From the UHGV virus genome UHGV-0236300: 64,000 nt of DNA. One strand, 5' to 3'. Under the pieces are notes generated by a model. It was not told the origin of the DNA. It saw nothing but the letters and a program-made list of their open reading frames with translations, and searched no databases. Below are positions 3,772-53,821 of this stretch, one piece after another (position 1 is the stretch's first letter; each line of letters starts with the position of its first letter). A program made the position numbers and the translations under genes. This stretch comes from a virus.

Positions 3772-3832
3772 TAAGATGTGAGTATAAAGGGGAGGCACTC
3801 CTCCCCACAAAAACTAAGGAGAGCACCAAACG

Positions 3833-5176
3833 ATGAGTAAAACCAAATTAGAACTTACCTGGATAGGTAAGAACGAGCGCAAAAAGCTAGAGCCTCACAT
3901 TTTGTTAGAAGATTCGAGCAAGTCTTATTACGCCAGTAAAAAGGTGACCGAAAACGATATTTTTGATAATAAACTGATTTTTGGAGATAACTTACTGGCA
4001 TTGAAGGCACTAGAGCAAGAGTATGCAGGCAAAGTGAAGTGTGTTTACATAGACCCGCCATTCAATACCGGAAGGGATTTTGAGCACTACGATGATAGCC
4101 TGGAGCACTCCATTTGGCTGGGCTTAATGCGGGACAGATTAGAAATAATTCGTAATCTGCTAAGCGATGATGGAGTGATATTCGTTCACTTAGATGACTG
4201 CGAAATGGCTTATTTAAAAGTCTTGATGGACGAGATTTTTGGTCGTGCAAATCAGTTAAATACCATATCGATGACTACAAATTGCCCTTCAGGCTTTAAG
4301 GCAACAGGAACTACAGTTTTCTCCACAGCAAACTTTTTGCTTGTATATGCAAAAGATCGTACCAAGAAACCACTTAACAAAATCTATATACCTAAAGAGT
4401 ATGATACGGGATATAACAAATATCTATTAAACCCAGATGACCATTATAAAAGTTGGACGTGGTGCGGTATTGCCGATGCGTTTGCAAAGGCCAATGGCTA
4501 TAAAGATACAAAAGAAGCCAAGAAAAAACTGCCTGATACATTTGATGATGAATTAGCACAATTTGCAATTGATAATGCAGAACGTGTATTTCAATCCGTT
4601 GCAATTGGCGGTGGTGCCAAAATAAAGAGAAAAGAAACTATCGAGAAGTCAAAGAAAGATAGGGATAAGGTTTATGTACATCCAAATGAGGATGTCGAAG
4701 GCTTTTATATCGCAAATGGTAGGCAAATGGTCTTTTATTCCAATAGGCTTTTGGAAATTGACGGCAAGATGCAGCCTGCTGAACTAATAACTGATGTTTG
4801 GACTGACATTAGTTGGAATGGAATAGCAAATGAAGGCGGCGTTAGTTTCAAAAATGGAAAAAAGCCCGAAGCGCTTTTGAAGCGAATTTTCGAAATGTGT
4901 ACGCGAGAAGGAGATTTAGTCTTGGATTCATTCGGCGGTTCAGGAACTACTGCTGCCGTAGCTCACAAGATGAAAAGACGTTGGATCTCTGTCGAGTTAG
5001 GTGATCATTGTCATACCCATATCATCCCGCGCTTGCAAAAAGTGATCGATGGCAAAGATCAAAGTGGTATTTCTAAATCTGTAAACTGGCAAGGTGGCGG
5101 GGGCTTTCGCTATTACAAACTTGCCCCGAACTTAGTTATGAAAGATAAGCTTGACTCAGAAGAAGATTTAGAGTAA
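3833..5176 (+). CDS. DNA methyltransferase, beta-class amino-MTase (N6-adenine or N4-cytosine)
   Basis: Motif IV IDPPFNT precedes motif I VLDSFGGSGTT (beta-class order); SD AAGGAGA 10 nt upstream. Confidence 0.8.
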   Translation: MSKTKLELTWIGKNERKKLEPHILLEDSSKSYYASKKVTENDIFDNKLIFGDNLLALKALEQEYAGKVKCVYIDPPFNTGRDFEHYDDSLEHSIWLGLMRDRLEIIRNLLSDDGVIFVHLDDCEMAYLKVLMDEIFGRANQLNTISMTTNCPSGFKATGTTVFSTANFLLVYAKDRTKKPLNKIYIPKEYDTGYNKYLLNPDDHYKSWTWCGIADAFAKANGYKDTKEAKKKLPDTFDDELAQFAIDNAERVFQSVAIGGGAKIKRKETIEKSKKDRDKVYVHPNEDVEGFYIANGRQMVFYSNRLLEIDGKMQPAELITDVWTDISWNGIANEGGVSFKNGKKPEALLKRIFEMCTREGDLVLDSFGGSGTTAAVAHKMKRRWISVELGDHCHTHIIPRLQKVIDGKDQSGISKSVNWQGGGGFRYYKLAPNLVMKDKLDSEEDLE

Positions 5177-26601: not shown

Positions 26602-27021
26602 ATGAACATTAAATCTGATAATCCGGCATATAGCTTTGATAACGCTTTTTGTCACGGTCCGGCGGCGAAAGGATTCGAAATCGATGGTAAACTAATTATT
26701 GTCAATGTTGACGGGGAAGAGGTTGCAGTATATCCGGTGGCAGACGTTAAAAGCCGTCTACAATGCCGCATAGATGTTACCGCCTATCAGCTTGATCCGG
26801 TCCGGGTAGTTGCCCTGGTCCTGGAAGAAGAAATTAAAGCAATGCACCACAGCAACAAGTTTATTGGTGACGCTCAAGATAATATGCAGGTATGCCGCTA
26901 TAAAGTTAATGAAGTGCTTAAAGAGTACGGCTATAAGGATTTAATGATCAAGCGCGATGAAAAATTCCGCTACCGTAACGACCTGGCAAATCGGATTTTT
27001 GAAATATACGAATCATTATAA
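26602..27021 (+). CDS. hypothetical protein
   Basis: ORF with SD AAGAGGTAAAAA upstream; followed by a terminator. Confidence 0.6.
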   Translation: MNIKSDNPAYSFDNAFCHGPAAKGFEIDGKLIIVNVDGEEVAVYPVADVKSRLQCRIDVTAYQLDPVRVVALVLEEEIKAMHHSNKFIGDAQDNMQVCRYKVNEVLKEYGYKDLMIKRDEKFRYRNDLANRIFEIYESL

Positions 27022-27039
27022 TTTCTTAACTGAATTATC

Positions 27040-27068
27040 AAGGGGCTTAAAGGCCCCTTTCTTTTTGT
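27040..27068 (+). terminator. rho-independent terminator
   Basis: AAGGGGC-TTAAAG-GCCCCTT hairpin followed by TCTTTTTG; closes the plus-strand cassette array. Confidence 0.7.
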
Positions 27069-27526
27069 CTGCTCTTCTCCTACCATAAACGGCCCTACCT
27101 GGCAAGTGGAATAATTGACTAGCCATCAATCCCACATACTGTACAAATATACATGGAAAATAACTATTGCATAATCTTTCATTGTGTGGTAGCAGGGCCA
27201 TTTTTACCCGTTTTCTCTCCCAAAAGTGCACGTAATGCCGCTATTGCACAAATTTTAACCTGATGCACATCTCCAATATCTTGTCAACAACTAAAAATCT
27301 TTATAAGTCATACACTTACACAGCATCGAAAGCGTGTTCTACGCGAAAAATCGAGTATAACTATAGCCGCCAGATCTCAGAATTCACGTACGCACGCCAT
27401 TCTATAGTCTGCAAAGTATTTATTCCAACCACAGAATAACGGAATAGTCAATACCTGCATAAAATAATTATTCGTGTAAACTGCATAACATAAATCAGCT
27501 CAGGTGTCAACATTTTTCGTAAACAG

Positions 27527-28322
27527 TTCGAAATTGTCACGATAAGTTATTATACACAGAGAAATCTTTAGTCGTCTAATGTTTACTGTACATTACTATA
27601 CTGACTGGAATCATTAGATGACTAAGAGAAAGATAAGAAATAATTAATAATGTAATTGTTTTACCTGTAACAATAAGGCAACTATGCAAACGAATGGCAT
27701 GGCGCGACGGAGTCGCGACATAATATAAAAGCAGTAACAATCACCCCCGTGATAGTTTTTCTGCAATCTATTATTCAGATCATAGTTGCCTTGTATTTAG
27801 TTAATCATGACATAACAAGCAAGGCAACTATAGATCTTCTAATAGTTGCCCTGCTTTTATATTATGTCATAGATTGTTATCTTGTTAATTGTTTTCATGC
27901 AAACGAATGTCATGGCTTATCATCTCTGTGTAAACAATTTGGGCGTAAACTATTCAGATGAAAACTATTCAGGCGTAAACAGTCTATGCGTAAACAGTGA
28001 GATATGGAATAGTAACAGCCGTTATTGTGTCATATTGTGTCATTGTGTCAAAGGTAAAAGTGTCAAAAGTGACAATTTTGTCACATTGTGTCAGACAAGT
28101 TTTTCTCCTCTTTGTCAAGTGCCGCATGAAAAATTTACAAACTGGTATGGTAGCATTTTTGCGGCCCTGTTTACATTCAGGAATGTATGTATAATCCTTG
28201 CTGTGTGGGCGTTTAGACGTCTGGACGGTCAGAAGTCAGCAGGTCAATATCTAATCTATTGGTTGCTAACTATATCCCACACAAATAGTAAGAAATATAA
28301 TTGTTATGTGCGTAAACAGTAA
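27527..28322. repeat. iteron-like repeats (core GCGTAAACAGT) in a noncoding region
   Basis: (T/G)CGTAAACAGT at ~27527, ~27974, ~27988, ~28310; GCGTAAACT at ~27944; AAGGCAACTAT and its reverse complement recur at ~27673, ~27783, ~27821, ~27843. Confidence 0.55.
28025..28120. repeat. array of TTGTGTCA-type short repeats
   Basis: TTGTGTCAT x2, TTGTGTCAA, GTGTCAAAAGTGACA, TTGTCACA, TTGTGTCAG, TTGTCAAG within ~95 bp. Confidence 0.55.
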
Positions 28323-28622
28323 CTCATGTTATCAATCCCTGTATGTATCGCCAGTGGTGCGCATAATGGGTATTATGTTAAATTGCCCGTAATGATAACC
28401 ATTCTCACAATGATAGGTATTCTCATTCATCCCCACAAGATAGATTGCAAATGTTGTGCCACTGTGTGAACGGCCTCACCTATTAATTTGCCTCACTGCC
28501 TCGATATTTGAGAATTATTATAAAAAATGAGAAGTATTCCCATTCCGTCCGCCTGGCAGCACTCCTGTAGGACAAGCACAACATCGGGGTATAACTGGAC
28601 CTGTTCAGATATTTCTGGCTGA

Positions 28623-29162
28623 CTCTTCAGGCCTGTGTGGGAAAAGCCAACCTCTCCGGCGGCGGGGAGGGGGGTCAATTAAAAAATTTACGTGGTGTAT
28701 GAAGCGCTCTTCAGGCAAGGTGTGTATTATGGGATGAAACCCTCTTCAGGTGATGATATTTGTGGGGGGATATTTGCTGGAAAGCCAGATATGACGGGGC
28801 TCCCGGCGGGGATGGGGTAGTACAGACAGGGAAAATGTGGGGATGTGGTGGGAGTAAATTGATCAAGTAGGTAGGATATGGAATATGTTACAAGTATGTT
28901 AAATATAGAGGTAGGATATTTGTGAGATTTGTGTGTAAAATCAAAGACTTAGGTGGTGTTGTGGTATTTTCTATAAATAATTCAAGTTTAATAGGTGATA
29001 TTTGTCTCCATCCACTTTGTGTGGTAAACAGCTCCTAATTGAATTGGTTTACAAGTGTATATAAAGTATACAAATTAAAGATATAAGAAACCCCCCTCCC
29101 CCTTCGGCTACCATTCACCTTTTCCTCTGACTGGTACTTAAACACTTATTCAGACTCTTCAG
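28623..29162. repeat. dispersed 9-mer CTCTTCAGG (4 copies here, 5th at ~29814)
   Basis: Exact 9-mer at ~28623, ~28707, ~28742, ~29154 and ~29814; about 0.5 copies expected by chance in 64 kb. Confidence 0.55.
28664..29101. repeat. 12-bp G-rich inverted repeat pair (GGGGAGGGGGGT / ACCCCCCTCCCC) flanking a GT-skewed segment
   Basis: Perfect reverse complements at ~28664-28675 and ~29090-29101; the intervening plus strand is almost devoid of C and holds G-runs. Confidence 0.5.
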
Positions 29163-29526
29163 GTTATCACCCCTATACTATATGGCAGTGACTGGTGTCC
29201 TCCGGCCCCTCTTTCGCCACCCGTCCGCTTCGCCATGCTAATGCCATAGCCAAAGGTTCGGTTGTTCACCCTGTTCACTCAGGTGTATCTCCATACCCCT
29301 TCAAACCGAAGAGAACAGAAAACCCGAATTACTCGGTAAAAGAAAAGAGAAGAACTTAATTTTATCAAGATAGGCAAGAATGTCAAGGGATGACTGCTCA
29401 CTAAACAAGCAAACAGTCATGTGTGGTAGGTAAGTAACTGGGTTGGTAGGAAATTTAGTTGGAAGATGTTATAGGTGCCTCCAGAACCTTAGCTGGGCAG
29501 CTAAACCTGCAAAGCAGACTTGTGTG

Positions 29527-29808
29527 TCAGTCCAAAGGTTCATCTACTACTTCACTGAAATCAATGTTCAGGGTCTCTTCCCAACCATCAATCTCAGCAC
29601 CAGAGTAGAGATCTTTAGGGTCTACATCAAGGGCTTCCGCAACAGCATCTATATTTAACACTTCTGGCAGGTAAGATTCATCGAATTCAAGGTAAATCAG
29701 GCCACGAGTGTTGTCAGTCCCACCAAATATTTCTATTTTCATGAAATCTCCTCTGGAAATGAGAGTGTGAACAGGGTTTATACGTTCCAATACGCTGGAA
29801 TTATGCAC
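29527..29808 (-). CDS. hypothetical acidic protein
   Basis: ORF with GTG start; very acidic composition. Confidence 0.5.
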   Translation of the reverse strand: MHNSSVLERINPVHTLISRGDFMKIEIFGGTDNTRGLIYLEFDESYLPEVLNIDAVAEALDVDPKDLYSGAEIDGWEETLNIDFSEVVDEPLD

Positions 29809-29862
29809 GTTTGCCTCTTCAGGCCATGCTTTAGCATGATAAACTTATGTGGGCTCGGTGCT

Positions 29863-43401: not shown

Positions 43402-44190
43402 TTACTCGGAAACAGGGGTCCAAATATGATTTGCACGATCCTCAATGAGATTGAGTGCAATCTGACGACCCAACCCGGAACGAACAACATCGTCTGGACT
43501 ATCAAAGCTGATCATTCCGACCTCAGGATCTGGATGGCGAGTAAAGAAATCCGTAACCCACGCAAGGCCAGATTTACCAGGAATGTCACGTTGGCTGTTA
43601 TCGCCCATAATTACAAGGGTTGCCTGATCAGAGATCCTTGTGATGATTGACAACATCTCTTCAGGGTTGGTTTGCTGTGCTTCATCAATAAGGACAAAGC
43701 ATCGTTCATCAAAACTACGACCACGAATGCTTTCAACCTCACAAATCTCGATACGGCTGTTCTGACCATCCCCAAGCATTGCTGCAAAAGCACCTTTGCC
43801 GACACGTTTGCAAATCGTGTCCATCATACTGCGAAGGTAAGGCCACAGTTTCTGCATTGCATTTCCAGGTTTAAATCCTGAAGTCTTTCCTGTTTGAACG
43901 TAAGGGCGTGCAACAATGATCTTATCAATCTCGTTCTTACGCAAAAGATCACCTGCATATGCGGATGCCATGAATGTCTTACCGGATCCAAACACACCGT
44001 TTACAATAATAATCTTACGCGATCCTAGATAATCAAGATACTTTTGCTGCTTTTTGTTCATTGGTCTAAGAGCTGGAGCTGTGTGCTCTCGTTCGTCAGC
44101 AAATTTCTCAGCAGCCTTACGCAGGCGATCAGATTTGCGAGCCTCTCTGGCTTCATCACGCATGCGTTTTGTTTCTTTAGCTCGACCCAT
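43402..44190 (-). CDS. phoH: PhoH-like ATPase
   Basis: Walker A GVFGSGKTF, Walker B-like VLIDEAQ; PhoH family architecture. Confidence 0.8.
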   Translation of the reverse strand: MGRAKETKRMRDEAREARKSDRLRKAAEKFADEREHTAPALRPMNKKQQKYLDYLGSRKIIIVNGVFGSGKTFMASAYAGDLLRKNEIDKIIVARPYVQTGKTSGFKPGNAMQKLWPYLRSMMDTICKRVGKGAFAAMLGDGQNSRIEICEVESIRGRSFDERCFVLIDEAQQTNPEEMLSIITRISDQATLVIMGDNSQRDIPGKSGLAWVTDFFTRHPDPEVGMISFDSPDDVVRSGLGRQIALNLIEDRANHIWTPVSE

Positions 44191-44228
44191 GTTGGGACTC
44201 CTTTCAGATTGAGATGTGTCAAGGACTT

Positions 44229-44579
44229 TTACTGCAACAGTTTTTCAATAGCCGCTTCCATGCTGCTTGCAACAGCCTGAACTCGGATATTCATCTCTTC
44301 TTGGCGGATCAGCTCCTTAAGCTCTTTAACGGTAAATTCTTTAGAGAAACCTTCCACCATAATCTTGTGCAAGGCTTCTTGCGTGTCTACTTGCAAGAAC
44401 TTTTCCAGTTTGTTGGCAGAGGCCTCTAAATCGGCCCGAATACGTGGGTCATCTGTTCGGTTCAGCATTAGGCGTAAGCCATCAAGATTGGTAGAAATAG
44501 CGTCTGCATGTTGAGTAACCAACCGTGGCAAAATGAGATCTACAAACTTACTGGCTAAATCAATACGCTCTTGTGTCAC
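44229..44579 (-). CDS. hypothetical protein
   Basis: ORF with GTG start overlapping the upstream small ORF stop. Confidence 0.5.
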   Translation of the reverse strand: MTQERIDLASKFVDLILPRLVTQHADAISTNLDGLRLMLNRTDDPRIRADLEASANKLEKFLQVDTQEALHKIMVEGFSKEFTVKELKELIRQEEMNIRVQAVASSMEAAIEKLLQ

Positions 44580-44689
44580 TGTTGCACCCCCTCTTCATCT
44601 TCATGATATTTCTTTTCACGCTTGTGTTTTTTCTTAAGCTCAAGCGCAATCTCTTTCTTGTACGCCTTCTTCAAGGCTTTTTTAGCCAT
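44576..44689 (-). CDS. small Lys-rich protein (37 aa)
   Basis: ORF below the track cut-off; strong SD GGAGGTG; MAKKALKKAYKKEIALELKKKHKREKK... Confidence 0.35.
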   Translation of the reverse strand: MAKKALKKAYKKEIALELKKKHKREKKYHEDEEGVQQ

Positions 44690-44751
44690 TTGGCACCTCC
44701 TCTGCTTTCATTATGATAATTATAACCAACTTATCAAAGCTTTGTCAACGA

Positions 44752-45225
44752 TTAGTCAACCTGAACCCAACCGCCTGCTACCTTTTTAAACATTCTTTGG
44801 TTATCGCTGCCTCGGAATGGTTTCTTTGTTGGTAAATCTTTTACATACTTTCCATCAATGACGATATCAGCCAGTTTAAGAACATCACTAGAGATATGCT
44901 CAAATGTGAACCCAGTATACACAAGAATAGTTTTCTTGTCACCAAACTTTTCCTTAATTCTCCTCATAAGGTCTATAATACCTGGCTCATTATAAGGAGC
45001 CAAAGGCTCTCCACCAAGTAAAGAAATACCGCATACAGATTCATTGTCTAAATCCGACAAAATTTTCTGCAAATCTTCTTCGGTGAACTCCCTTCCTTTA
45101 TCTTTTGACCAAAATGCTTGATTAAAGCAACCAGGACAAGCGTGTGGGCACCCAGATACCCACAAAGCTGTCCTAATGCCTGGCCCCTCGGTGTAAGATA
45201 TCTCTGTATACCCGACAATATTCAT
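44752..45225 (-). CDS. nrdG: anaerobic ribonucleotide reductase activating protein (radical SAM)
   Basis: CPHACPGCFN (CxxxCxxC radical-SAM cluster motif); directly downstream of nrdD; track ORF 44752..45243, start set at MNIVGYT. Confidence 0.8.
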   Translation of the reverse strand: MNIVGYTEISYTEGPGIRTALWVSGCPHACPGCFNQAFWSKDKGREFTEEDLQKILSDLDNESVCGISLLGGEPLAPYNEPGIIDLMRRIKEKFGDKKTILVYTGFTFEHISSDVLKLADIVIDGKYVKDLPTKKPFRGSDNQRMFKKVAGGWVQVD

Positions 45226-45338
45226 ACGTACTCCGCATCGCATTTAGGACAATGCCAAATAAAATCGTCCAGTGCCTTACACCAACGAAGATTGCAATGA
45301 CAACCACACTTGCAAATTTTATAAATACCTGTAGACAT
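45222..45338 (-). CDS. small Cys-rich zinc-ribbon protein (38 aa)
   Basis: ORF below the track cut-off between nrdD and nrdG; SD GGAGGTG; CKCGCHC...CPKC; stop overlaps the nrdG start. Confidence 0.4.
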   Translation of the reverse strand: MSTGIYKICKCGCHCNLRWCKALDDFIWHCPKCDAEYV

Positions 45339-45401
45339 ATTGCACCTCCTAGTTTACTGTGTGACAACAATATGCCACATCCTTGTGACTTTTGTCAAGT
45401 A

Positions 45402-47522
45402 TCAGCAACCACAACTTCCGTAGTGCTTAACCCGTTCTATAACCTCAGCCTGCTTACCCTTATTGTAAGGGCGGGAGTTTGGACTAGACAGATACCCGGA
45501 TACGCGTCTGATCACACTGATCGTTCCTTCTTCATGGTTTCCACACTCTGGGCATACAAAGCCTTTAGCTGTTGCACTGAACTCGCCAGAGAATCCACAC
45601 TTAAGACATTTATCCACAGGCTGGTTAATACCAAAATACATAATGTGTTTATACCCGAAATCGACAAGAGCTTCTAAAGCATCTAAGTTGTTTTTCAGGT
45701 TAGGTGTTTCTATGTATCCAATGTTGCCGCCAGAAGAGATCATAGCAAAACCTTCCTCATACTTCCACTTGTCAAAAGGTGAGCTATTGATCCACACGGG
45801 TTGGTGGAAACTGTTGGTAAGGTATTCGTGCTCGTGCTTCAACACTTCAGGATATTCACGATCTAGACATGTTGCAGCCTTATAGCACAAGCTCTCTGAA
45901 GGAGTGCCGTACAAGCTGAATGCCAGACCACTTTCTTTTTTGTACCGATCACAAGCATCTTTCATGTGTTGAAGGATCCCAAGAGCTAAGGACTTGTCTC
46001 CCTCTCTGCCTAAAATCTGGCAGGTTTCATACACACCAATATACCCAATACTTATGGAAGCATACCCGTCATAGAAGAGTTTATCAATACTCTCTTCAGG
46101 ATCCAGGCGAGCAAGGGCCCCTTCACACCACATGATGGGGTTCTGCCCTGCCTTTGTTCCTTTTAGACGGTTAACTCTTACAAGGTGAGCCTCGTATGCC
46201 AGATCCAAGTACTCGTCAAGAACTGCAAAGAAATCAACACCTTCCGTTTTAGCTTTTGCCGCAATCATTGGTAGGTTAAGGCTAACAACACCCAAGTTGA
46301 ATCTGCCAAGGTATTTTTCATCACCCTCCGAGGTAACGTATTTGCCAAGGAACGACCTACATCCCATGCTTGTTACTTTGCCATCTGTTGAACCTGTCAC
46401 TTTACGATTTAGCGGAACAGAAACAAAGTCAGGATAAATCCGCTCTGCAGAGCATTCTAGGGCCAATCGTTTCAAATCATAGTTAGGATCCCCAGGGTTC
46501 ATGTTGACACCATCTTCTAAGAAGAACAGCACTTTAGGGAACACAGGCGTGATCCGTTCTTCACCAAGACCCATTTTGTGGACTTTCAAGTAGTTTTTGG
46601 TAATCATTCTACCAAAGACCGAAGTATCCAGCCCTAAACTTAATGTGATGAATGGGGTTTGCCCGTTGACAGAAGTTAACGTATTGATTTGGTAGAGCAA
46701 AGTTTGCATACTATCAAACACGTCTTTATCGGTCATTTGCATTGCAACAGTCTCAGCATCTGGCAACCAATGTTCCTGACAAAATTTAAGGTTCTTCTCA
46801 TAAGTTGCTTCAGCATATTGTGCCAGATAATGATCAATATGGCTCATAGTTTGACCACCATATTGAGCACTAGCTACTGCACTAGAGATTTGACTAAGGA
46901 TTGTTGTTGCAACCCCTATTGACTTCGGCTTACTGACATGGGCGTTGCCAATGTTGAATCCGTTTTCCAGCATATCCGGATAATTTACCAAACAACAGTT
47001 TGTTAACGGACTGATCAGGTAGTCAAGATCATGCACATGGATGAAGCCCTTGTTGTGCTCTTCTGAGACACGATCTGGCAGGATCTGTGTTGATGCAAGG
47101 TGTTTGCTAAGGATGCCTGCAAGCAGGTCACGATGAGTGTGTACATGATTAGTAGGCTTATTTGCGTTTTCTTTTGTAAATTCATCACAAGTACGATCCA
47201 AAAAGCCACTAATATCTGCAAGCAGTTTTCCACCTGCCTCTCTGTTATTATCTCTTGTCTGTCTATACTGGATGTATTCTCTGGCTGCACATTTTAAACC
47301 CATATCCATAAGAGCATCTTCAACAAGGATATGGATATTTTTTACAGAGATCGTGCACTGGTCGGTTGGCAGATTGTTGGCAACAACTTCATTAACCGCG
47401 CAGGCAATCCGGTAAGCTTCTTCTTCAGTATGCCCAGACTCAAGTAAGGCGGACTCTGCCGCCTTGATCACCTTAATTCCGTTATAAAACTCTTCTCTAC
47501 CGTCCCGTTTTACAACTTTCAC
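45402..47522 (-). CDS. nrdD: anaerobic ribonucleoside-triphosphate reductase (class III)
   Basis: C-terminal zinc site CLKCG...CPECG and glycyl-radical motif RRVSGYL. Confidence 0.9.
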   Translation of the reverse strand: MKVVKRDGREEFYNGIKVIKAAESALLESGHTEEEAYRIACAVNEVVANNLPTDQCTISVKNIHILVEDALMDMGLKCAAREYIQYRQTRDNNREAGGKLLADISGFLDRTCDEFTKENANKPTNHVHTHRDLLAGILSKHLASTQILPDRVSEEHNKGFIHVHDLDYLISPLTNCCLVNYPDMLENGFNIGNAHVSKPKSIGVATTILSQISSAVASAQYGGQTMSHIDHYLAQYAEATYEKNLKFCQEHWLPDAETVAMQMTDKDVFDSMQTLLYQINTLTSVNGQTPFITLSLGLDTSVFGRMITKNYLKVHKMGLGEERITPVFPKVLFFLEDGVNMNPGDPNYDLKRLALECSAERIYPDFVSVPLNRKVTGSTDGKVTSMGCRSFLGKYVTSEGDEKYLGRFNLGVVSLNLPMIAAKAKTEGVDFFAVLDEYLDLAYEAHLVRVNRLKGTKAGQNPIMWCEGALARLDPEESIDKLFYDGYASISIGYIGVYETCQILGREGDKSLALGILQHMKDACDRYKKESGLAFSLYGTPSESLCYKAATCLDREYPEVLKHEHEYLTNSFHQPVWINSSPFDKWKYEEGFAMISSGGNIGYIETPNLKNNLDALEALVDFGYKHIMYFGINQPVDKCLKCGFSGEFSATAKGFVCPECGNHEEGTISVIRRVSGYLSSPNSRPYNKGKQAEVIERVKHYGSCGC

Positions 47523-47797
47523 TTTTTCTCTCCAAAACCATTCTTAACAAAAGAGATGAAATCGTCAGCACCACCTATGTGGAGACTGTCAAGGTTGCTT
47601 TCCAAGAAGATCTGAGGCAACGTTCTAGGAACAAATGGGCTACACTTCTCGATAAGCTCTTCTTTTGTGTATCCTTCACCCAGCGTCTTGTATACGAAAG
47701 GTATGCCTTTGCTGACTGCAAATTCTTTTGCTCTTACACAATGTGGGCAGTTATCCTTGCCGTAAATGATGATGAAAAAAGATTTTTCGCAGCTCAT
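47519..47797 (-). CDS. glutaredoxin-like protein
   Basis: CPHC active-site motif in a ~90-aa protein within the RNR cluster. Confidence 0.7.
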   Translation of the reverse strand: MSCEKSFFIIIYGKDNCPHCVRAKEFAVSKGIPFVYKTLGEGYTKEELIEKCSPFVPRTLPQIFLESNLDSLHIGGADDFISFVKNGFGEKK

Positions 47798-47800
47798 ATA

Positions 47801-48889
47801 TTAAAACTCCCAAATTTCTTCTTCAGCGTCGTTAACAGTTGTGTTGACGCGGTAGTCAGTGTTAGACATTTCCTGGTTAGCCGTCTGTTGCAGTGAAGGT
47901 TTCATCCACACCTGCATAAACGGTAGCGGGTCTTTTGTTGGCGGCACAAAGTCTTTGTCGATATTGTAGTAATCATAAATCGGTGAGCAGTTATAGTCAA
48001 CCCATTCTTTAAGTAATGGTGAGTTAAGACCTATAATTGCTCTTCCTTCGCTGAAAATATAGTCACTCCAACCGTACTCCTTGATTCGCACTTCGTCAAG
48101 AATTTCTTTTAACTCACCCTTAATCTCAAGAAAGCTTTGCTCCCATGCAGGGTCATCAAGCAGGATATCGATGATAGCAAAATCACCTTTCGAATGCAGC
48201 ATTTCATCAAGCATAATTTTTTGAACGAGTTGTGCAACTTGAACAAAAATACCTTGCTCAGCTACTGCGAACGTACATGCAAAACTTGCAATAAACTCAA
48301 TACTCTCTAGAGCTAAAAGTGCAAAAAGTGCTCTAAGGATACATTTCCGTACAACATCTTCTTCAACACTGGAAGGATCCAGTCGGTATTTTGCACCAAT
48401 AACCTCAAGCTCTTGCATATATTTGACAATAACTCCAGACCTGCTCAGCACGTTCTGGTTTTCCTGAATCTCTTCTATAATCTCACGAGCATTAGGAAGG
48501 CATTGTCTAACAATCTCTGAGTAAGTTAGTGCATGAAGAACCTCAATCTCAGACTGCTTCATCAACAAGGTGAAAAGTTCACTATTGGTGATAAATGGTG
48601 AAAACAGACAAATGATAGATCTTGCTGCAACACTGTCTGCCTCCCATTGCCACATCAGTGTCTGCACCATCACATCGTAAGTTGACTTTGAGCATGTTAC
48701 GAAATCCGAAATAGACTGTGACAGATCTACTTCGTCCTCTGCCCAATCTTGTTCTTTTTGTTTTTTGTATAGTTCAAACAGCTGTGGGTACTTTTTGTTA
48801 ATAGAGTCGTACATCCCCATCTGCTGTCCTAAAAACAGTGGATAATCACCAGTTTTATGAGCAGTGTTCTCAGTATTAAATACAGCCAT
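47801..48889 (-). CDS. nrdB: ribonucleoside-diphosphate reductase beta subunit (class Ia)
   Basis: PLFLGQQ, EIEVLHALTYSE and ALESIEFIASFACTFAVAEQG parallel E. coli NrdB; track start 48979 overlaps nrdA, start set at MAVFNTE after SD. Confidence 0.85.
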   Translation of the reverse strand: MAVFNTENTAHKTGDYPLFLGQQMGMYDSINKKYPQLFELYKKQKEQDWAEDEVDLSQSISDFVTCSKSTYDVMVQTLMWQWEADSVAARSIICLFSPFITNSELFTLLMKQSEIEVLHALTYSEIVRQCLPNAREIIEEIQENQNVLSRSGVIVKYMQELEVIGAKYRLDPSSVEEDVVRKCILRALFALLALESIEFIASFACTFAVAEQGIFVQVAQLVQKIMLDEMLHSKGDFAIIDILLDDPAWEQSFLEIKGELKEILDEVRIKEYGWSDYIFSEGRAIIGLNSPLLKEWVDYNCSPIYDYYNIDKDFVPPTKDPLPFMQVWMKPSLQQTANQEMSNTDYRVNTTVNDAEEEIWEF

Positions 48890-48929
48890 TATTCTACCTC
48901 TAAAATGGGGCCGAAGCCCCTTTTTTAAA

Positions 48930-51245
48930 TTACAGTGCACAACTTTCGCAATATGGATCTTCAACTGAACTATCTGCAATCAAAGGATAGTTCTTTCTGG
49001 TTTCATCTTCAGCCTGTTTCTTCGCGTGAAGCTCCTCTGTCAAAGAGTCACCAGCACCAACCCGAGAGTTTAAGTAATACCATGTCTTCATCCCGAATTT
49101 AGTAGCACGGATAAGATACCCCAGCTGCTCCTTCATTGAAATTTTACCATCTTTCAACTTGGTGTAATCAATATATAGGTCAGCACTGATTGCCTGTCCT
49201 GTGAATTTTTGAATCACAGCATACATATCAATCATGTCGTTAGTATCAACGTCCCAAGCCGAGGTATAATACTCTTTCAGTTCATCATATTCAGGAACGA
49301 TAAACAGCACCTGTCCTTGTGGCGACTTTTTAAAGATAATGTGCTCACGGACAGGATAAACCCCGTTAGTGGTGTTTGTTGCCAGCGAAGAGCTTTCATT
49401 AGGCATATATGCTTCAAGAACGCTATTACGTAGCCCACCATTTTCAATGATTTCTTTACGTAACCCTTCCCAATCCTGCTTAAGAGAAGGATCTTTCACC
49501 ACACTATCGACCTCTTTGTTATAGGTGTCGATTGGTAACCAACCATCCGGGTATTTTGTTTTATGCATCCACTCACAGACACCACGCTCTTTTGCCAATC
49601 GTAAACTTGCCTTATGCAAGCTGTAGCTGTGGAGCTCTGCAAGATCGTGAACAAGCTGTTTACTTTCAGGAGACCCGTAAGCAACCTTGTGGCTGGCAAT
49701 AAAATGTGCAACATTGGTAAGGCCAACCCCGATGGATCTGCGTTTTTTAACAGTGCTCTCCATATTTTCATACGGATATGTCATGATTTCCATAACATTG
49801 TCAATCATAAGCACAGTGTAGTATGCAACATCCTCATACTCCTCTGGGGTAACCCTTCCAGCTACAAGAGATGACAGGAAGCACAATGCAACTTCGCCAT
49901 CATCAACATCGTACTTGAAGATATTACGCATATCTGAATAGCCTTTTGTCGGGAGGGCTATTTCTGCACACAGGTTACTTGAATAGATCACATCTTTAAA
50001 AGGTGTATGTCTATTCATCTCATCTGTCCAGTATACGTACAGCCTGCCAACCTCGGTACGCTGCGTGATCAGTTCAACAGCAAGGTCTCTAGCACGGATC
50101 CATGTTTTAGGAATGCTGTCATCTTTAGCAATACGATCAACCTCTGCATCAAACTCCTCCATAGACATGGTGAAGATACCCTCATGCAGTTGAGGCGCGT
50201 GCTTATAAGAAACAAGCATCCAATCTAAATTCTTAGCCACACGGTTGATAAACGACCTATTAATACCTATAGAGTAATCCATGGTGTTGATTCTTTTTGA
50301 AGCAACAGTCATAGGGTTTCTCAAACGGATTAGCTCATCAATCTGCGGGTCCAGTGCAAGGAATGATACTGTTGCAGAACCGCCACGTGATTGTTGTCTG
50401 TTCTCCTTAACCCCAGCATCAATACCTCGATAATATGGAATCTTGCCCATATGTTTAATAGTGTTACCACGAACACCATCACCTGCAGATCTTGATGATA
50501 AATAGTATCCAATACCTGCTTGGTTAACCGTCATTGTGTATGCAACTTCACGTGCCACACCAATAGATTTTGCTGTATCGTCAGCTTTTATTACACAACA
50601 AGATGCATACCCTGTCTTGCCTGTGCGTAGACCGTTTAAGTACGGTGTCGGGGCATTGATCTTTAAGTCTGACAGATAAGTGTATAATTTTACAACATCG
50701 TCAATACGGCGTTCTTTCGGCATATTTTTCATGACAGCCATCGCTATCCCCATAAACATCATCTGTGGAGATTCGAACAGGGTGTCTTTAAGAGTATCCT
50801 TGATCCCGTATTTGTCTCGAAACTGTTTAAGGACTGCATAGCCATAACCAAGGTCTTTACTGTGATCAATAACAGTGTCTAAAGTGTTTAACTCGGTAAA
50901 GCTATAACCCATATCCTCCCAATACCCTTTATCAACCATGGTATTGTAAAATGATGGTAAGGAAGGGATCTTTGTGAATCCTCCAAAAGCCTCTTTATAA
51001 ATCTGACCGATAAGAACACGACCAGCCATACGAGAATGTGCTTCGTCCTTACGGCTAACACAGGAGTCTATAATAGCTTGGTTAACTTCTTTGGTTGTGC
51101 ATCCATCATACAGCCGTTTGTATGCATCAAGTGCAATATGTGACCAATTGCCGTTACCGTCGTCACCGAAAATAGCTGCCTTATTTAAACGTTCCGGATC
51201 GAATGCCACTTCACATCCGTTGCTTTTAATTACCTTAGTGATCAA
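48930..51245 (-). CDS. nrdA: ribonucleoside-diphosphate reductase alpha subunit (class Ia)
   Basis: N-terminal ATP-cone-like segment, active-site NLCAEI, C-terminal CESCAL cysteine pair. Confidence 0.9.
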   Translation of the reverse strand: MITKVIKSNGCEVAFDPERLNKAAIFGDDGNGNWSHIALDAYKRLYDGCTTKEVNQAIIDSCVSRKDEAHSRMAGRVLIGQIYKEAFGGFTKIPSLPSFYNTMVDKGYWEDMGYSFTELNTLDTVIDHSKDLGYGYAVLKQFRDKYGIKDTLKDTLFESPQMMFMGIAMAVMKNMPKERRIDDVVKLYTYLSDLKINAPTPYLNGLRTGKTGYASCCVIKADDTAKSIGVAREVAYTMTVNQAGIGYYLSSRSAGDGVRGNTIKHMGKIPYYRGIDAGVKENRQQSRGGSATVSFLALDPQIDELIRLRNPMTVASKRINTMDYSIGINRSFINRVAKNLDWMLVSYKHAPQLHEGIFTMSMEEFDAEVDRIAKDDSIPKTWIRARDLAVELITQRTEVGRLYVYWTDEMNRHTPFKDVIYSSNLCAEIALPTKGYSDMRNIFKYDVDDGEVALCFLSSLVAGRVTPEEYEDVAYYTVLMIDNVMEIMTYPYENMESTVKKRRSIGVGLTNVAHFIASHKVAYGSPESKQLVHDLAELHSYSLHKASLRLAKERGVCEWMHKTKYPDGWLPIDTYNKEVDSVVKDPSLKQDWEGLRKEIIENGGLRNSVLEAYMPNESSSLATNTTNGVYPVREHIIFKKSPQGQVLFIVPEYDELKEYYTSAWDVDTNDMIDMYAVIQKFTGQAISADLYIDYTKLKDGKISMKEQLGYLIRATKFGMKTWYYLNSRVGAGDSLTEELHAKKQAEDETRKNYPLIADSSVEDPYCESCAL

Positions 51246-51472
51246 TTTGCTTCCTCCACTTCATCAACGTATTTATCAAGGCAGGTATCAGTATCTTGTT
51301 GGGTAAAGGTATCCTCTTCTACAGAGATATTTATAATTTTACCTGTATACTCGTCATAATAAACATCATCATACATTTTAATATCGTTTGTCAGGCCATT
51401 GAACCAAAGCCAACCAACATATTCTGCCCGACTTGCAAAACCAAGATCCTTCCACTTGGAGTTATGACTCAT
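51242..51472 (-). CDS. hypothetical protein
   Basis: Track ORF 51242..51550; ATG 51472 after SD AAGGTGG is the likelier start. Confidence 0.45.
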   Translation of the reverse strand: MSHNSKWKDLGFASRAEYVGWLWFNGLTNDIKMYDDVYYDEYTGKIINISVEEDTFTQQDTDTCLDKYVDEVEEAN

Positions 51473-51482
51473 CTTCACCACC

Positions 51483-51944
51483 TTAGCTTTCAATACCGAA
51501 TAATTTTTCCAGGAGATGCAGATCTTCAAAATTGAAAGGTTCATCAACAATATGAATATCTTCAGCCTTTTCAGATTGTTTTGTATACTTTCTTACATTA
51601 ACACGATCTTCTACAGGGATATCATATGGAAGATCTTGAACAAGCATTGTCTCACCGGGTGCTTTATCTACATCGAGAATATCTACACCATTATACATTT
51701 GTGGGTATCTAAAGTCTGCACGCATGACACCAGCAAATACATCGGCCTTTCGATAATGAGTTGGTTTATTTTTGCATCTAACGTTTTTTCCACGAAGAAC
51801 ATCAATATTTTTTAAATCAAACCCTACGGCAAAGAGTGCAGCTCGAAGACCGTTTCGTGTGCGAACGTTAAACCCGGGAACGGTAGATAGGAAATCTAAA
51901 GTAACTGAAATAAATGTCTTTTTAGGAATCATAACATCACTCAT
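51483..51944 (-). CDS. hypothetical protein
   Basis: Track ORF 51483..51983; ATG 51944 after SD AAGGGAGA is the likelier start. Confidence 0.5.
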   Translation of the reverse strand: MSDVMIPKKTFISVTLDFLSTVPGFNVRTRNGLRAALFAVGFDLKNIDVLRGKNVRCKNKPTHYRKADVFAGVMRADFRYPQMYNGVDILDVDKAPGETMLVQDLPYDIPVEDRVNVRKYTKQSEKAEDIHIVDEPFNFEDLHLLEKLFGIES

Positions 51945-52042
51945 ATCTGTCTCCCTTTCTGGCTCACCAACAAAGTGAGCCACTATTATAGATTATCTAA
52001 TGCTATTAGTCAACACAAAAGTTACCTATCGCTGTGATAGGC

Positions 52043-53026
52043 TTACCCTTTCATGAAGTGGTTATTAAGCAACTGTCTGTGCTGAACCCACCCACAAAAG
52101 TTGGCAGACCAGAATTTACCATCGCGGTCTTGATGGGTTACACCTTCCTGCCAAACACAACTATCTTGTGTGATTTCACATGAAGACAGGTAGTAGTTTA
52201 AACGTTCCATTGCATTGTCGTGATCCATAGGTGTCGCCTGGTGCTCGTAAGGGCTTGCATGAATACGATCCCCACCAATCAATTTTTTAGCCACACTATC
52301 TGCTTTTTCAAACGTGCTGTCAATATTGCGATAAGATACTTGTGCACAGCAGCTCGCACTAATAGATAGAGCTTCTCCAGTATCGAGAATGCATAGCTTC
52401 CCTTCTGTGTCACGCACAGCATAGTTAAACTCACCGTCCAAATAAACGTGTTCTACATATGGGGTGTGCCATTGACCTGGTTTAAGGACTTCAGGAGTGC
52501 TATTCACAAGAGCCTCCCACATACAATTAGCCAACATCTGAATCGTAGGATCCGCATCGTGCCAGCAACGGAGGTGGAAAAAATTATTCCACTCGGTGCT
52601 TGTTACAACTGTTTTCATGCGTTGAAAAGGTTCCACTAAGCGGTTACATACTTGCTTATGGTAACCAGCAAGGGCGAACTTCTCTGCATGCCAAGCGGCG
52701 TTTTTTGCAGCTTCTTTCCAAAACTCTTCAGGAGTCAGCTCCATGTCAGTGTATTCTACACGGATCTTTTGATCGTGTTCCCCACCATCTTCCATCCCTC
52801 GCTTATTTACACCGAAGCGAACTGGCATTGCCGGATTCTCCACGATCTGCTGCAGCATCTTGCTGACAGGTACTGCACGAGAAGACATAGCGTTTCGGCT
52901 GAACACTCGATGTGTCATAAGCTCTGAGTGAATAATTCGAGGATATTCTAGCTCAAAAGTGGTGATACGCTTACCTTTCTCGGAAATGCTGTCGGCAATA
53001 ATCTTTGCAGTGCACAGTTTTAGCAT
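52043..53026 (-). CDS. thyX: flavin-dependent thymidylate synthase-like protein (ThyX family)
   Basis: ELMTHRVFSRNAMSSRAV parallels the ThyX signature (RHRxxxxxxxS...R), with Thr in place of the first Arg; longer than typical ThyX. Confidence 0.65.
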   Translation of the reverse strand: MLKLCTAKIIADSISEKGKRITTFELEYPRIIHSELMTHRVFSRNAMSSRAVPVSKMLQQIVENPAMPVRFGVNKRGMEDGGEHDQKIRVEYTDMELTPEEFWKEAAKNAAWHAEKFALAGYHKQVCNRLVEPFQRMKTVVTSTEWNNFFHLRCWHDADPTIQMLANCMWEALVNSTPEVLKPGQWHTPYVEHVYLDGEFNYAVRDTEGKLCILDTGEALSISASCCAQVSYRNIDSTFEKADSVAKKLIGGDRIHASPYEHQATPMDHDNAMERLNYYLSSCEITQDSCVWQEGVTHQDRDGKFWSANFCGWVQHRQLLNNHFMKG

Positions 53027-53226
53027 TATTTAGCTCTCCTTGTTTTAATTTTGGAAATTTCGTCTGGGTTTATGTTGGCCTTAAATGCAAGGTATCTGTT
53101 GAACATATCGGAGCACATATCTTGGGTGATCCTAGAGGCATACACCAGCTTACCACCCAGATCATACACCTCTAGCCAGTCACCGTATCTGACTACAGGA
53201 TCGCCACCCTTAGAACATCTGCCCAT
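53026..53226 (-). CDS. hypothetical protein
   Basis: Short ORF coupled to thyX. Confidence 0.45.
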   Translation of the reverse strand: MGRCSKGGDPVVRYGDWLEVYDLGGKLVYASRITQDMCSDMFNRYLAFKANINPDEISKIKTRRAK

Positions 53227-53227
53227 T

Positions 53228-53821
53228 TCAAATACCTTCTAAAAACTTCCCTATTTTATACCAGCTGTTAGCGGTATAGTCAACACTAACCTTCAACTCC
53301 TCGAATTGCTCATAAGGAGTGTCTTTTAAGATTTTAATAACTTCAGGGCGTGAAGCGAATTGGTTCAGGTATTCATGCCTGTCGTCAATTATAACATCTA
53401 CAGCCACATTACCTTTGAAATGTGTGGCGTAGAAGCCGTGACCCTGGGTGTGATCGTCCAGATCCATAAAATCGCTGGTCCAACGCTTTAAGAACCTTGA
53501 TTTAGATGCAAGGTGACCTTTCTTGCATACAGAGATAAATGCAAGCTTGTGACCACGAGCCACCAAATCTTTCATAACCTCAATAGCCCCCTCTTCAGGC
53601 TTAAGAAAGTCGTAGAGGAACGGGTCACTCCAGAAATCAAAAGGTCCTATGATGTTTTCTTTGGGGCGATCAGGCCAATACTTTGACAGATCGTAATACA
53701 TCAGCCCGTTAGAAGGTTTAGCAACTGTCTTGCTGGCTGGACCATATAAACGCTCTAGCCACTCCCACCATGCTGTTCCTGAGTCTACCAGTGTTAAATC
53801 TACATCAATTCCGATCAGCAT
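53228..53821 (-). CDS. HAD-family phosphatase (putative 5'(3')-deoxyribonucleotidase)
   Basis: N-terminal IGIDVDLTLVDS (DxDxT HAD motif I); sits between thyX and a dNMP kinase. Confidence 0.5.
   Translation of the reverse strand: MLIGIDVDLTLVDSGTAWWEWLERLYGPASKTVAKPSNGLMYYDLSKYWPDRPKENIIGPFDFWSDPFLYDFLKPEEGAIEVMKDLVARGHKLAFISVCKKGHLASKSRFLKRWTSDFMDLDDHTQGHGFYATHFKGNVAVDVIIDDRHEYLNQFASRPEVIKILKDTPYEQFEELKVSVDYTANSWYKIGKFLEGI

Follow-up and report, generated by a model that had tools for sequence, protein, structure and literature searches.

Rho-dependent terminators of E. coli and its phages, such as lambda tR1, have an untranslated C-rich tract of at least 78 nt with regularly placed C residues and a hairpin within about 150 nt, and they close transcription units that lack a hairpin-plus-U terminator. 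The RhoTermPredict criteria are a 78-nt stretch with a C/G ratio above 1 and a C every 11-13 nt, with a GC-rich hairpin (loop of 4-8 nt) no more than 150 nt downstream (PMC6407284). Here we describe a locus of the virus genome UHGV-0236300 that resembles them in base composition and in its hairpin and may be such a terminator. In the 64,000-nt stretch analyzed (the window), a 414-nt interval at 28676-29089, strongly skewed towards G and T on the plus strand, lies between two G-rich 12-bp arms at 28664-28675 (plus strand) and 29090-29101 (minus strand). A sequence-only reading had treated arms and interval as one unit. They are three adjacent parts of a sub-terminal control region of Vequintavirus, not one element: a hairpin that includes the left arm, a rut-like tract, and a structured RNA gene that ends with the right arm. 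The anatomy of the region, with its terminal repeat, RNA gene, two independent G-run helices and extreme rut-like tract, is well supported. Compared with described Rho-dependent terminators, the tract is extreme in composition (C/G 13.5) and length (~230-400 nt), adjoins a phage terminus and is in part conserved in sequence.

The window comes from a Vequintavirus, an rV5-like E. coli myophage, and is ~97% identical to ECP32, S127 and ECP26. The inverted repeat lies in a 2.5-kb box (27022-29526) that holds no credible open reading frame (ORF) and is flanked by convergent gene blocks; the plus-strand genes stop at 27021, ahead of a canonical terminator (27040-27059), and those of the minus strand stop at 29527. 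The rV5 paper drew this stretch as a grey 'non-coding' box between ORF163 and ORF164, in which the expected terminators were not found, and its authors did not locate the origin of replication (PMC3606486). Phage Gotham, of the same genus, has 459-bp terminal repeats and a fixed packaging start (PMC7471380). The repeats are annotated at 1-459 and 136567-137025 of its record and map to 28094-28553 of the window with 95.4% identity. At least four further records (EdH4, ECP2303, ECP2309 and YN3) terminate at window position ~28095. The physical genome ends therefore lie inside the ORF-free box. The direct terminal repeat (DTR) contains no ORF and is present as a single copy in the window, which is permuted or concatemer-like and spans the junction of the virion DNA ends. 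The left arm starts 111 bp outside the DTR and the segment is not within it; in virion DNA, the segment is the stretch just inside the right-hand DTR copy.

A candidate Rho-dependent terminator

The base skew of the interval is clearly beyond chance. At every scale tried, the maximum of (G-C)/(G+C) over the 64-kb window falls here, with 0.89, 0.75, 0.59 and 0.50 at 100, 200, 300 and 400 nt, respectively. The 200-nt peak is at 28805-29004 (63 G and 9 C), and the 400-nt peak begins exactly at 28664. The interval had been described as almost free of C, which holds for 28805-29004 but is somewhat overstated for the whole, where 41 of the 414 nt are C.

Minus-strand RNA of the interval is C-rich and G-poor, with a rut-like core at ~29001->28768. 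The best 78-nt stretch (28916->28839, minus strand) has 27 C, placed at regular intervals, and 2 G. None of the 127,846 78-nt stretches on the two strands of the 64 kb has a C/G ratio above its 13.5, and the 99.9th percentile is 6.25. Four consecutive sampled 78-nt stretches, from 28962 to 28768, also have the C excess and C spacing of a rut site. The left-arm hairpin (28670-28651) follows ~100-170 nt downstream of the core, the distance depending on the 78-nt stretch chosen. It has a 7-bp GC-rich stem, formed by CCTCTCC (28651-28657) and GGGGAGG (28664-28670), and a 6-nt loop, GGCGGC. Both the composition and the hairpin that RhoTermPredict looks for are thus essentially present, and we regard this hairpin as a candidate pause or stop hairpin for minus-strand transcripts.

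The interval has no consistent ORF, and the conserved promoter of the RNA gene (29386-29359) points into it. A scan of the minus strand for intrinsic terminators, down to 26500, found none beyond a weak hairpin early in the RNA (H1) and none at either arm. Downstream of the left hairpin, the plus strand is A-rich and the minus strand reads UUGGCUUUUCC, in clade A only (see below). Upstream of the promoter, a hairpin between it and the last minus-strand gene (29390-29420, minus strand, ATGACTG...CAGTCAT) has no U-tract, and the upstream operon is therefore without a canonical terminator. In clade B this position is taken by another hairpin, ATACCTAC...GTAGGTAT.

None of the ~120 related records lacks the segment. 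A second, divergent clade (clade B, next to clade A), on 8 contigs, came from pattern searches of IMG/VR and metagenomes; it is ~50% identical across the element and absent from the bacterial genomes and isolate phages scanned. A search for other genera by way of the flanking proteins found that protein and DNA matches of the flanks end at the genus boundary. Mean pairwise identity is 94.5% in the G-rich left half of the interval (28664-28850), 88.7% in the AT/GT-rich right half (28851-29089) and 93.8-95.0% in the flanking coding DNA. The skew is kept in 20 of 20 relatives in which both arms were located, at 0.40-0.49 in clade A and 0.27-0.34 in clade B. That composition is kept although 28851-29089 is poorly conserved is the pattern expected of a compositional signal.

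Since the minus-strand unit has no hairpin-plus-U terminator, we read the interval as a Rho loading and termination zone. Polymerases that read leftward past the RNA gene, or past the end of the long minus-strand operon, would transcribe the 414-nt interval. The untranslated C-rich, G-poor RNA would act as the Rho-loading (rut) tract, and the left-arm hairpin as the place downstream where the polymerase pauses or stops. Rho would then end leftward transcription ~100 bp before the DTR, keeping RNA polymerase off the genome end and the packaging region. On the sequence evidence, we put the probability that the interval is a Rho-dependent terminator shielding the genome end at about 0.42.

Several observations weigh against this. 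The RNA start, the RNA end and any read-through are all predicted, and an excess of C over G has low specificity as a predictor of Rho sites. Read-through could be limited by H1 (29336-29324), a weak hairpin resembling a terminator and located ~20 nt from the RNA start. The RNA gene itself has an ordinary single-sequence folding energy (z = -1.08), and its covariation comes from two clades and a structure-aware curated alignment. In clade B, a plus-strand gene lies inside the interval. This 240-267-aa ORF encodes an HNH_3 endonuclease (Pfam E = 1.6e-18) between the G-run arms (7716-8486 in contig L003). It is at equivalent positions in L023, L056 and L104, degraded in L021 and absent in L082, and looks like a homing-endonuclease insertion with presence/absence polymorphism. 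The tract thus tolerates large insertions and, in clade B, opposing transcription. Finally, two blocks within the interval are conserved in sequence across the clades (~73-79% by cross-clade BLAST, with which the L003 alignment agrees). Block E2 (28734-28829; ~75-79% identity to clade B) contains CTCTTCAGG, two GATATTTG copies and a small CGGG-N3-CCCG hairpin; E3 (28938-28982) is the second. A pure rut tract does not need such conservation, which makes a second, DNA-level function likely to be superimposed.

The short motifs of E2 recur around the left hairpin. A GATATTT...CTCTTCAGG pair lies just left of it (28609-28633, plus strand), further CTCTTCAGG copies start at 28707, 28742, 29155 and 29815, and GATATTTG is found at about 28755 and 28769. 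There are 10 copies of CTCTTCAGG in the window (0.49 expected), half of them in 28623-29823. The arrangement of CTCTTCAGG and GATATTTG around the hairpin is fixed in both clades. These motifs look like candidate protein-binding sites, and a packaging or replication role may therefore be superimposed on the tract.

A stronger form of this idea is that CTCTTCAGG/GATATTTG, E2/E3 and the G-run hairpin are sites of the small terminase subunit that direct the DTR-making cuts, the skew being a side effect. The first of the motifs is ~55 bp away from the DTR boundary, both clades place the motifs alike around the hairpin, and E2/E3 are conserved beyond composition. It would, however, leave a depletion of one base over 300 nt unexplained; the most strongly skewed part (28851-29089) has low conservation and none of these motifs, and 5 of the 10 CTCTTCAGG copies are far from the terminal region (3478 and 43657-53591). 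We consider it unlikely as the main explanation. A recombination or packaging signal had also been proposed from sequence alone; the neighborhood, ~110 bp from the DTR, fits that proposal, but no result here shows such a role.

The system to which this packaging alternative likens the motifs and hairpin is the T7/T3 concatemer junction (pacB and the sub-terminal hairpin). Both have a short DTR (459 bp here), defined packaging starts and non-coding flanks that bear repeats and, just inside one end, an inverted repeat. T7 and T3 belong to an unrelated family, however, and here 414 nt separate the arms, which show no co-variation. Another comparison is with the pRNA of phi29, which like the RNA described below is a structured noncoding RNA of ~170-260 nt with its own promoter, ~0.5-1.3 kb from a physical genome end. 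The two have no similarity in sequence or structure, the DNA of the phi29 family is protein-primed, and a packaging role here would be by analogy only.

A structured RNA gene on the minus strand

The right arm is part of a conserved gene for a structured RNA of ~263 nt (29352->29090, minus strand), its start predicted from the promoter and its end from the conservation boundary. It is well supported by conservation, promoter retention, covariation and a sharp 3' boundary. A structured noncoding RNA was among the earlier suggestions for the segment. Such a gene exists, but it lies to the right of the segment and includes only the right arm. Mean pairwise identity is 98.9% over 29090-29352 and 97.8% over the promoter and upstream hairpin (29353-29430). 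The nearly invariant block ends with the right arm as its last 12 nt, and conservation collapses right after it; in clade B, conservation likewise stops at the G-run (GGGGGTAGGGGG).

The promoter (29359-29386, minus strand) is of the sigma70 type, with TTGACA, a 16-nt spacer and the extended -10 TGaTAAAAT. It scores 11/12 plus the TG extension and is the best promoter of the region, with the invariant block directly downstream. Clade B has a promoter of other sequence at the same place (TTGCAA, 17-nt spacer, TGnTATAAT).

A structure with helices P0 and H1-H6 was derived from a hand-curated alignment of 16 sequences from the two clades, with 40 pairs. In this alignment, which was curated with the structure in mind and covers two clades only, 98.9% of cells are paired and 15 pairs have double-sided compensatory changes. 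Controls with a slid register gave 50-57% paired cells and 0-2 compensatory pairs. Only 75% of cells are paired on the opposite strand, because of G-U pairs. Helices differ in sequence between clades A and B while keeping their pairing: H1 is CCGA/UCGG vs CCAGAA/UUCUGG, H3 is GUAU/AUAC vs GAUA/UAUC, H4 is GGUGAC/GUCACU vs GGUUGG/CCAACU, and H6 is UCUGA/UCAGA vs CAAUAGCA/UGCUGUUG, with co-variation within clade B too. In both clades, P0 joins a 5' pyrimidine leader to the 3' G-run, so that the right arm is its 3' strand. Automatic alignment and folding of both clades (MAFFT and RNAalifold) recovered the structure in part, because of misalignment, and unconstrained minimum-free-energy folds of single sequences differ between the clades. 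The structure was therefore curated by hand.

The RNA gene is new, being absent from Rfam and from every record annotation inspected. Rfam 15 gave no match at gathering thresholds over the 64 kb; a relaxed search (E <= 5) of 26900-29700 gave two chance-level matches only (E = 1.6 and 3.3), both located elsewhere. ARAGORN found no tRNA or tmRNA, literature searches found no RNA or function described for the region, and pattern scans of bacterial genomes found no homologue of the RNA gene, clade B being the sole extra clade.

Other identities were considered and rejected. Protein coding in the interval or RNA gene is not indicated, as there are short ORFs only, their frames differ between clades and conservation is the same at all codon positions. 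The sequence CUGAAGAG (CUGANGA) hinted at a hammerhead ribozyme; Rfam gave no match, stems II and III are poor, and a deletion removes the motif in 4 clade B members. A CsrB-like GGA sponge and a Chi/RecBCD signal were judged by eye alone and set aside; for the latter, no exact Chi site exists, and the Chi-like GGTGG motifs do not lie on the strand needed for entry at the nearby end. The most conserved unpaired motif of the RNA, GUGAACAGGGU (29268-29278, part of a GUGAACA direct repeat), complements 11 nt at 29767-29777, which lie in the leader of the neighboring minus-strand gene, ~25 nt before the start codon. As a small-RNA target this lead is weak. L002, the closest relative, and L001 both have a changed site, and there is no enrichment of CTGTTCAC. 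Clade B has a 9-11-nt complement to GUGAACAGGGU at a non-homologous position, in the 3' untranslated region of the same gene. The complementarity is probably chance.

The end of the RNA resembles the mitochondrial conserved sequence block CSB II, where a hybrid DNA:RNA quadruplex or R-loop terminates transcription and primes replication, the human sequence being GGGGGAGGGGGGGTTTG (PMC4176368). The 3' end of the RNA, GAAGGGGGAGGGGGGUUU (DNA GGGGGAGGGGGGTTT), nearly matches the CSB II RNA GAAGCGGGGGAGGGGGGGUUU, with G5AG6TTT here vs G5AG7TTTG and GAAG before both. As in CSB II, at least two G-tracts (GGGGGAGGGGGG, minus strand) lie on the non-template strand downstream of a promoter, here ~250 nt from the predicted start, and in both the G-run is at the point where the conserved RNA ends. 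An alternative to the Rho terminator is therefore a replication origin at the G5AG6-TTT run. A hybrid G-quadruplex or stable R-loop of the RNA with the non-template DNA would arise there and transcription would stop, leaving the 3' end of the RNA to prime DNA synthesis into the AT-rich stretch beyond.

That conservation stops exactly at the G-run agrees with such an origin, as do the lowest GC content of the region (31%) just downstream (28900-29099), the top G4Hunter scores of the window at the two arms, and the fact that the rV5 authors located no origin (PMC3606486). Still, the similarity to CSB II covers only ~17 nt of low complexity. CSB II behavior is reported for single-subunit, T7-like polymerases, and the promoter here is of the host sigma70 type, for a multi-subunit enzyme. 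The G-run can pair with the RNA's own 5' leader instead, the U-tract after it is lost in some clade A phages and in clade B, and no result here shows replication starting at the G-run. We think such an origin improbable. ColE1 RNA II and T4 oriF / ori(uvsY) also combine a strong promoter and a structured or G-rich transcript with a following AT-rich stretch, but have no sequence or Rfam similarity to the locus. The ~263-nt RNA with its CSB II-like end might be a phage primer or origin RNA, or have another terminus role (packaging, end protection), though we hold this to be rather unlikely. If true, a primer or origin RNA would be the bacterial-virus counterpart of the mitochondrial LSP/CSB II switch, turning a host-polymerase transcript into a primer for replication next to the genome end.

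The two arms

The exact 12-bp inverted repeat reported from the sequence was borne out. The left arm reads GGGGAGGGGGGT on the plus strand; the right arm reads ACCCCCCTCCCC on the plus strand and GGGGAGGGGGGT, within GAAGGGGGAGGGGGGTTT, on the minus strand, with 414 nt between the two (pair I18). Taken alone, this repeat is within chance. A 64-kb sequence should contain about 2 exact 12-mer inverted repeats with arms no more than 500 bp apart (64000 x 500 / 4^12), and I18 ranks 18th among 34 inverted repeats in the surrounding 3.5 kb. Matches to GGGGNGGGG in the window are the two arms only, and at least two matches were found in 22 of 100 shuffles.

The arms were looked for in 23 sequences, and both were located in 20. 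Among these 20, the exact 12-nt match occurs in the window only. The left arm varies (GGGGAGGGGGG, GGGGAGGGG, GGGGCAGGGGGG and GGGAAGGGGG, with nearby indels; GGGGAGGGG in clade B). The right arm is nearly invariant, being G5AG6 or G6AG6 with one G5AG5 variant, and G5TAG5 (GGGGGTAGGGGG) in clade B. Across the 20 sequences the arms are 395 to 1262 nt apart and show no co-variation with each other. Other sequences do keep the pairing of the left-arm hairpin, as CCCCTCC/GGAGGGG in rV5 and CCTCCC-TCTG-GGGAGG in clade B. The left arm forms the G-strand of a hairpin that is conserved, GC-rich and independent, and the right arm is the 3'-terminal G5AG6 run of the minus-strand RNA gene, which pairs with the pyrimidine-rich 5' leader of the RNA. 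Their mutual complementarity is a by-product, because both belong to helices of a G-run with a pyrimidine run.

In T7, an inverted repeat beside the terminal repeat has been proposed to serve hairpin-primed duplication of the repeat. By the same token, the arms here could anneal within a long minus-strand RNA or single-stranded DNA and close a 414-nt loop for RNA processing or for fold-back priming in terminal-repeat duplication. The exact 12-nt complementarity in the window would allow it. Across relatives, though, the left arm changes to GGGGCAGGGGGG, GGGAAGGGGG or GGGGAGGGG while the right arm keeps G5AG6 or G6AG6; clade B has GGGGAGGGG vs GGGGGTAGGGGG at a spacing of 423 to 1262 nt, and each arm has a partner of its own, local for the left and RNA-internal for the right. 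Pairing between the arms is very unlikely.

The suggestion of a small inserted element bounded by inverted repeats fared worse still, the sole point for it being that the inverted repeat exists. A comparison for presence or absence found no relative without the segment, and thus no empty site, among the ~120 related records. The arms are not conserved as a matching pair and do not co-vary, and the right one is within the nearly invariant RNA gene. The flanks, GGCGGC on the left and CTTCGG on the right, show no target duplication, and there is no transposase ORF. The sole mobile gene nearby, the clade B HNH endonuclease, is inside the interval and does not define it. With no empty site, target duplication or transposase, and with arms that do not form a pair, we rule out a mobile element.

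The G-quadruplex potential noted for the segment is modest and holds with relaxed loops only. No canonical motif (four runs of at least three G, loops of 1-7 nt) exists on either strand of the 64-kb window; one relaxed motif (loops up to 12 nt) is at 28796-28852. Of six loci in the window with a G4Hunter score of at least 1.5, three are here, and the two arms score highest. A near-copy of the left arm, CGGCGGGGATGGGG, is found at 28804-28817 (D20).

The terminal repeat and its surroundings

Mean pairwise identity in the DTR (28094-28553) is 94.7%. Its outer boundary adjoins a cluster of short TTGTGTCA-type repeats (28024-28093, family D12), which is hypervariable, with 63.6% mean pairwise identity and 23% gaps, where neighboring regions have 92-95%. 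The TTGTGTCA / TTTTGTCAC repeats stop exactly at the DTR boundary, and the cluster may be a specificity determinant for the terminase or an initiator. The repeats include GTGTC, a sequence recognized by T7-type primases. Repeats of (T/G)GCGTAAACAGT / GTAAACAG (families D1-D3) are found both in and outside the DTR, at 27516, 27972, 27987, 28309 and 29024.

In the left half of the box there are two perfect inverted repeats, one of 18 bp (27717-27734 / 27851-27868; I2) and one of 12 bp (27782-27793 / 27820-27831; I13). They are nested around ATAGTTGCC motifs and may be additional structured elements. The Murica record annotates a terminator in the left part of the box (3822-3857 of locus L001).

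Two indel hot spots were seen. At 28569/28570, just outside the DTR, some relatives have a 30-50-nt insertion repeating CACTCCTGTA or CCTCCCTGTA; at 28672, other relatives have insertions of 12-70 nt directly after the left arm. In Shigella phage CM1 (L008), window positions 28402-28553, the inner ~150 bp of the DTR, occur twice, at 1130-1280 and 1653-1804. The extra copy, which lies ~520 bp upstream of the other, reflects a genuine duplication or else faulty assembly of the terminal repeat. Among the database records, 18 or 19 entries named 'Campylobacter phage' (MG0656xx, marked UNVERIFIED) are Vequintavirus genomes 86-92% identical to the window phage; they are probably mislabelled or contaminant assemblies.

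The rV5-like phages are widely isolated and are candidates for therapy and biocontrol, and their 2.5-kb 'non-coding' box has been blank since 2013. The DTR is now placed inside this ORF-free box, a nearly invariant structured RNA gene is found beside it, and the most skewed stretch of the genome is given a concrete, testable explanation. The mechanisms proposed here (Rho, R-loop, packaging) are inferred. Should the RNA act as a primer or in packaging, it would represent a functional class new to large myophages. A Rho site in the interval would illustrate how a phage dependent on the host polymerase insulates its DNA ends from transcription.

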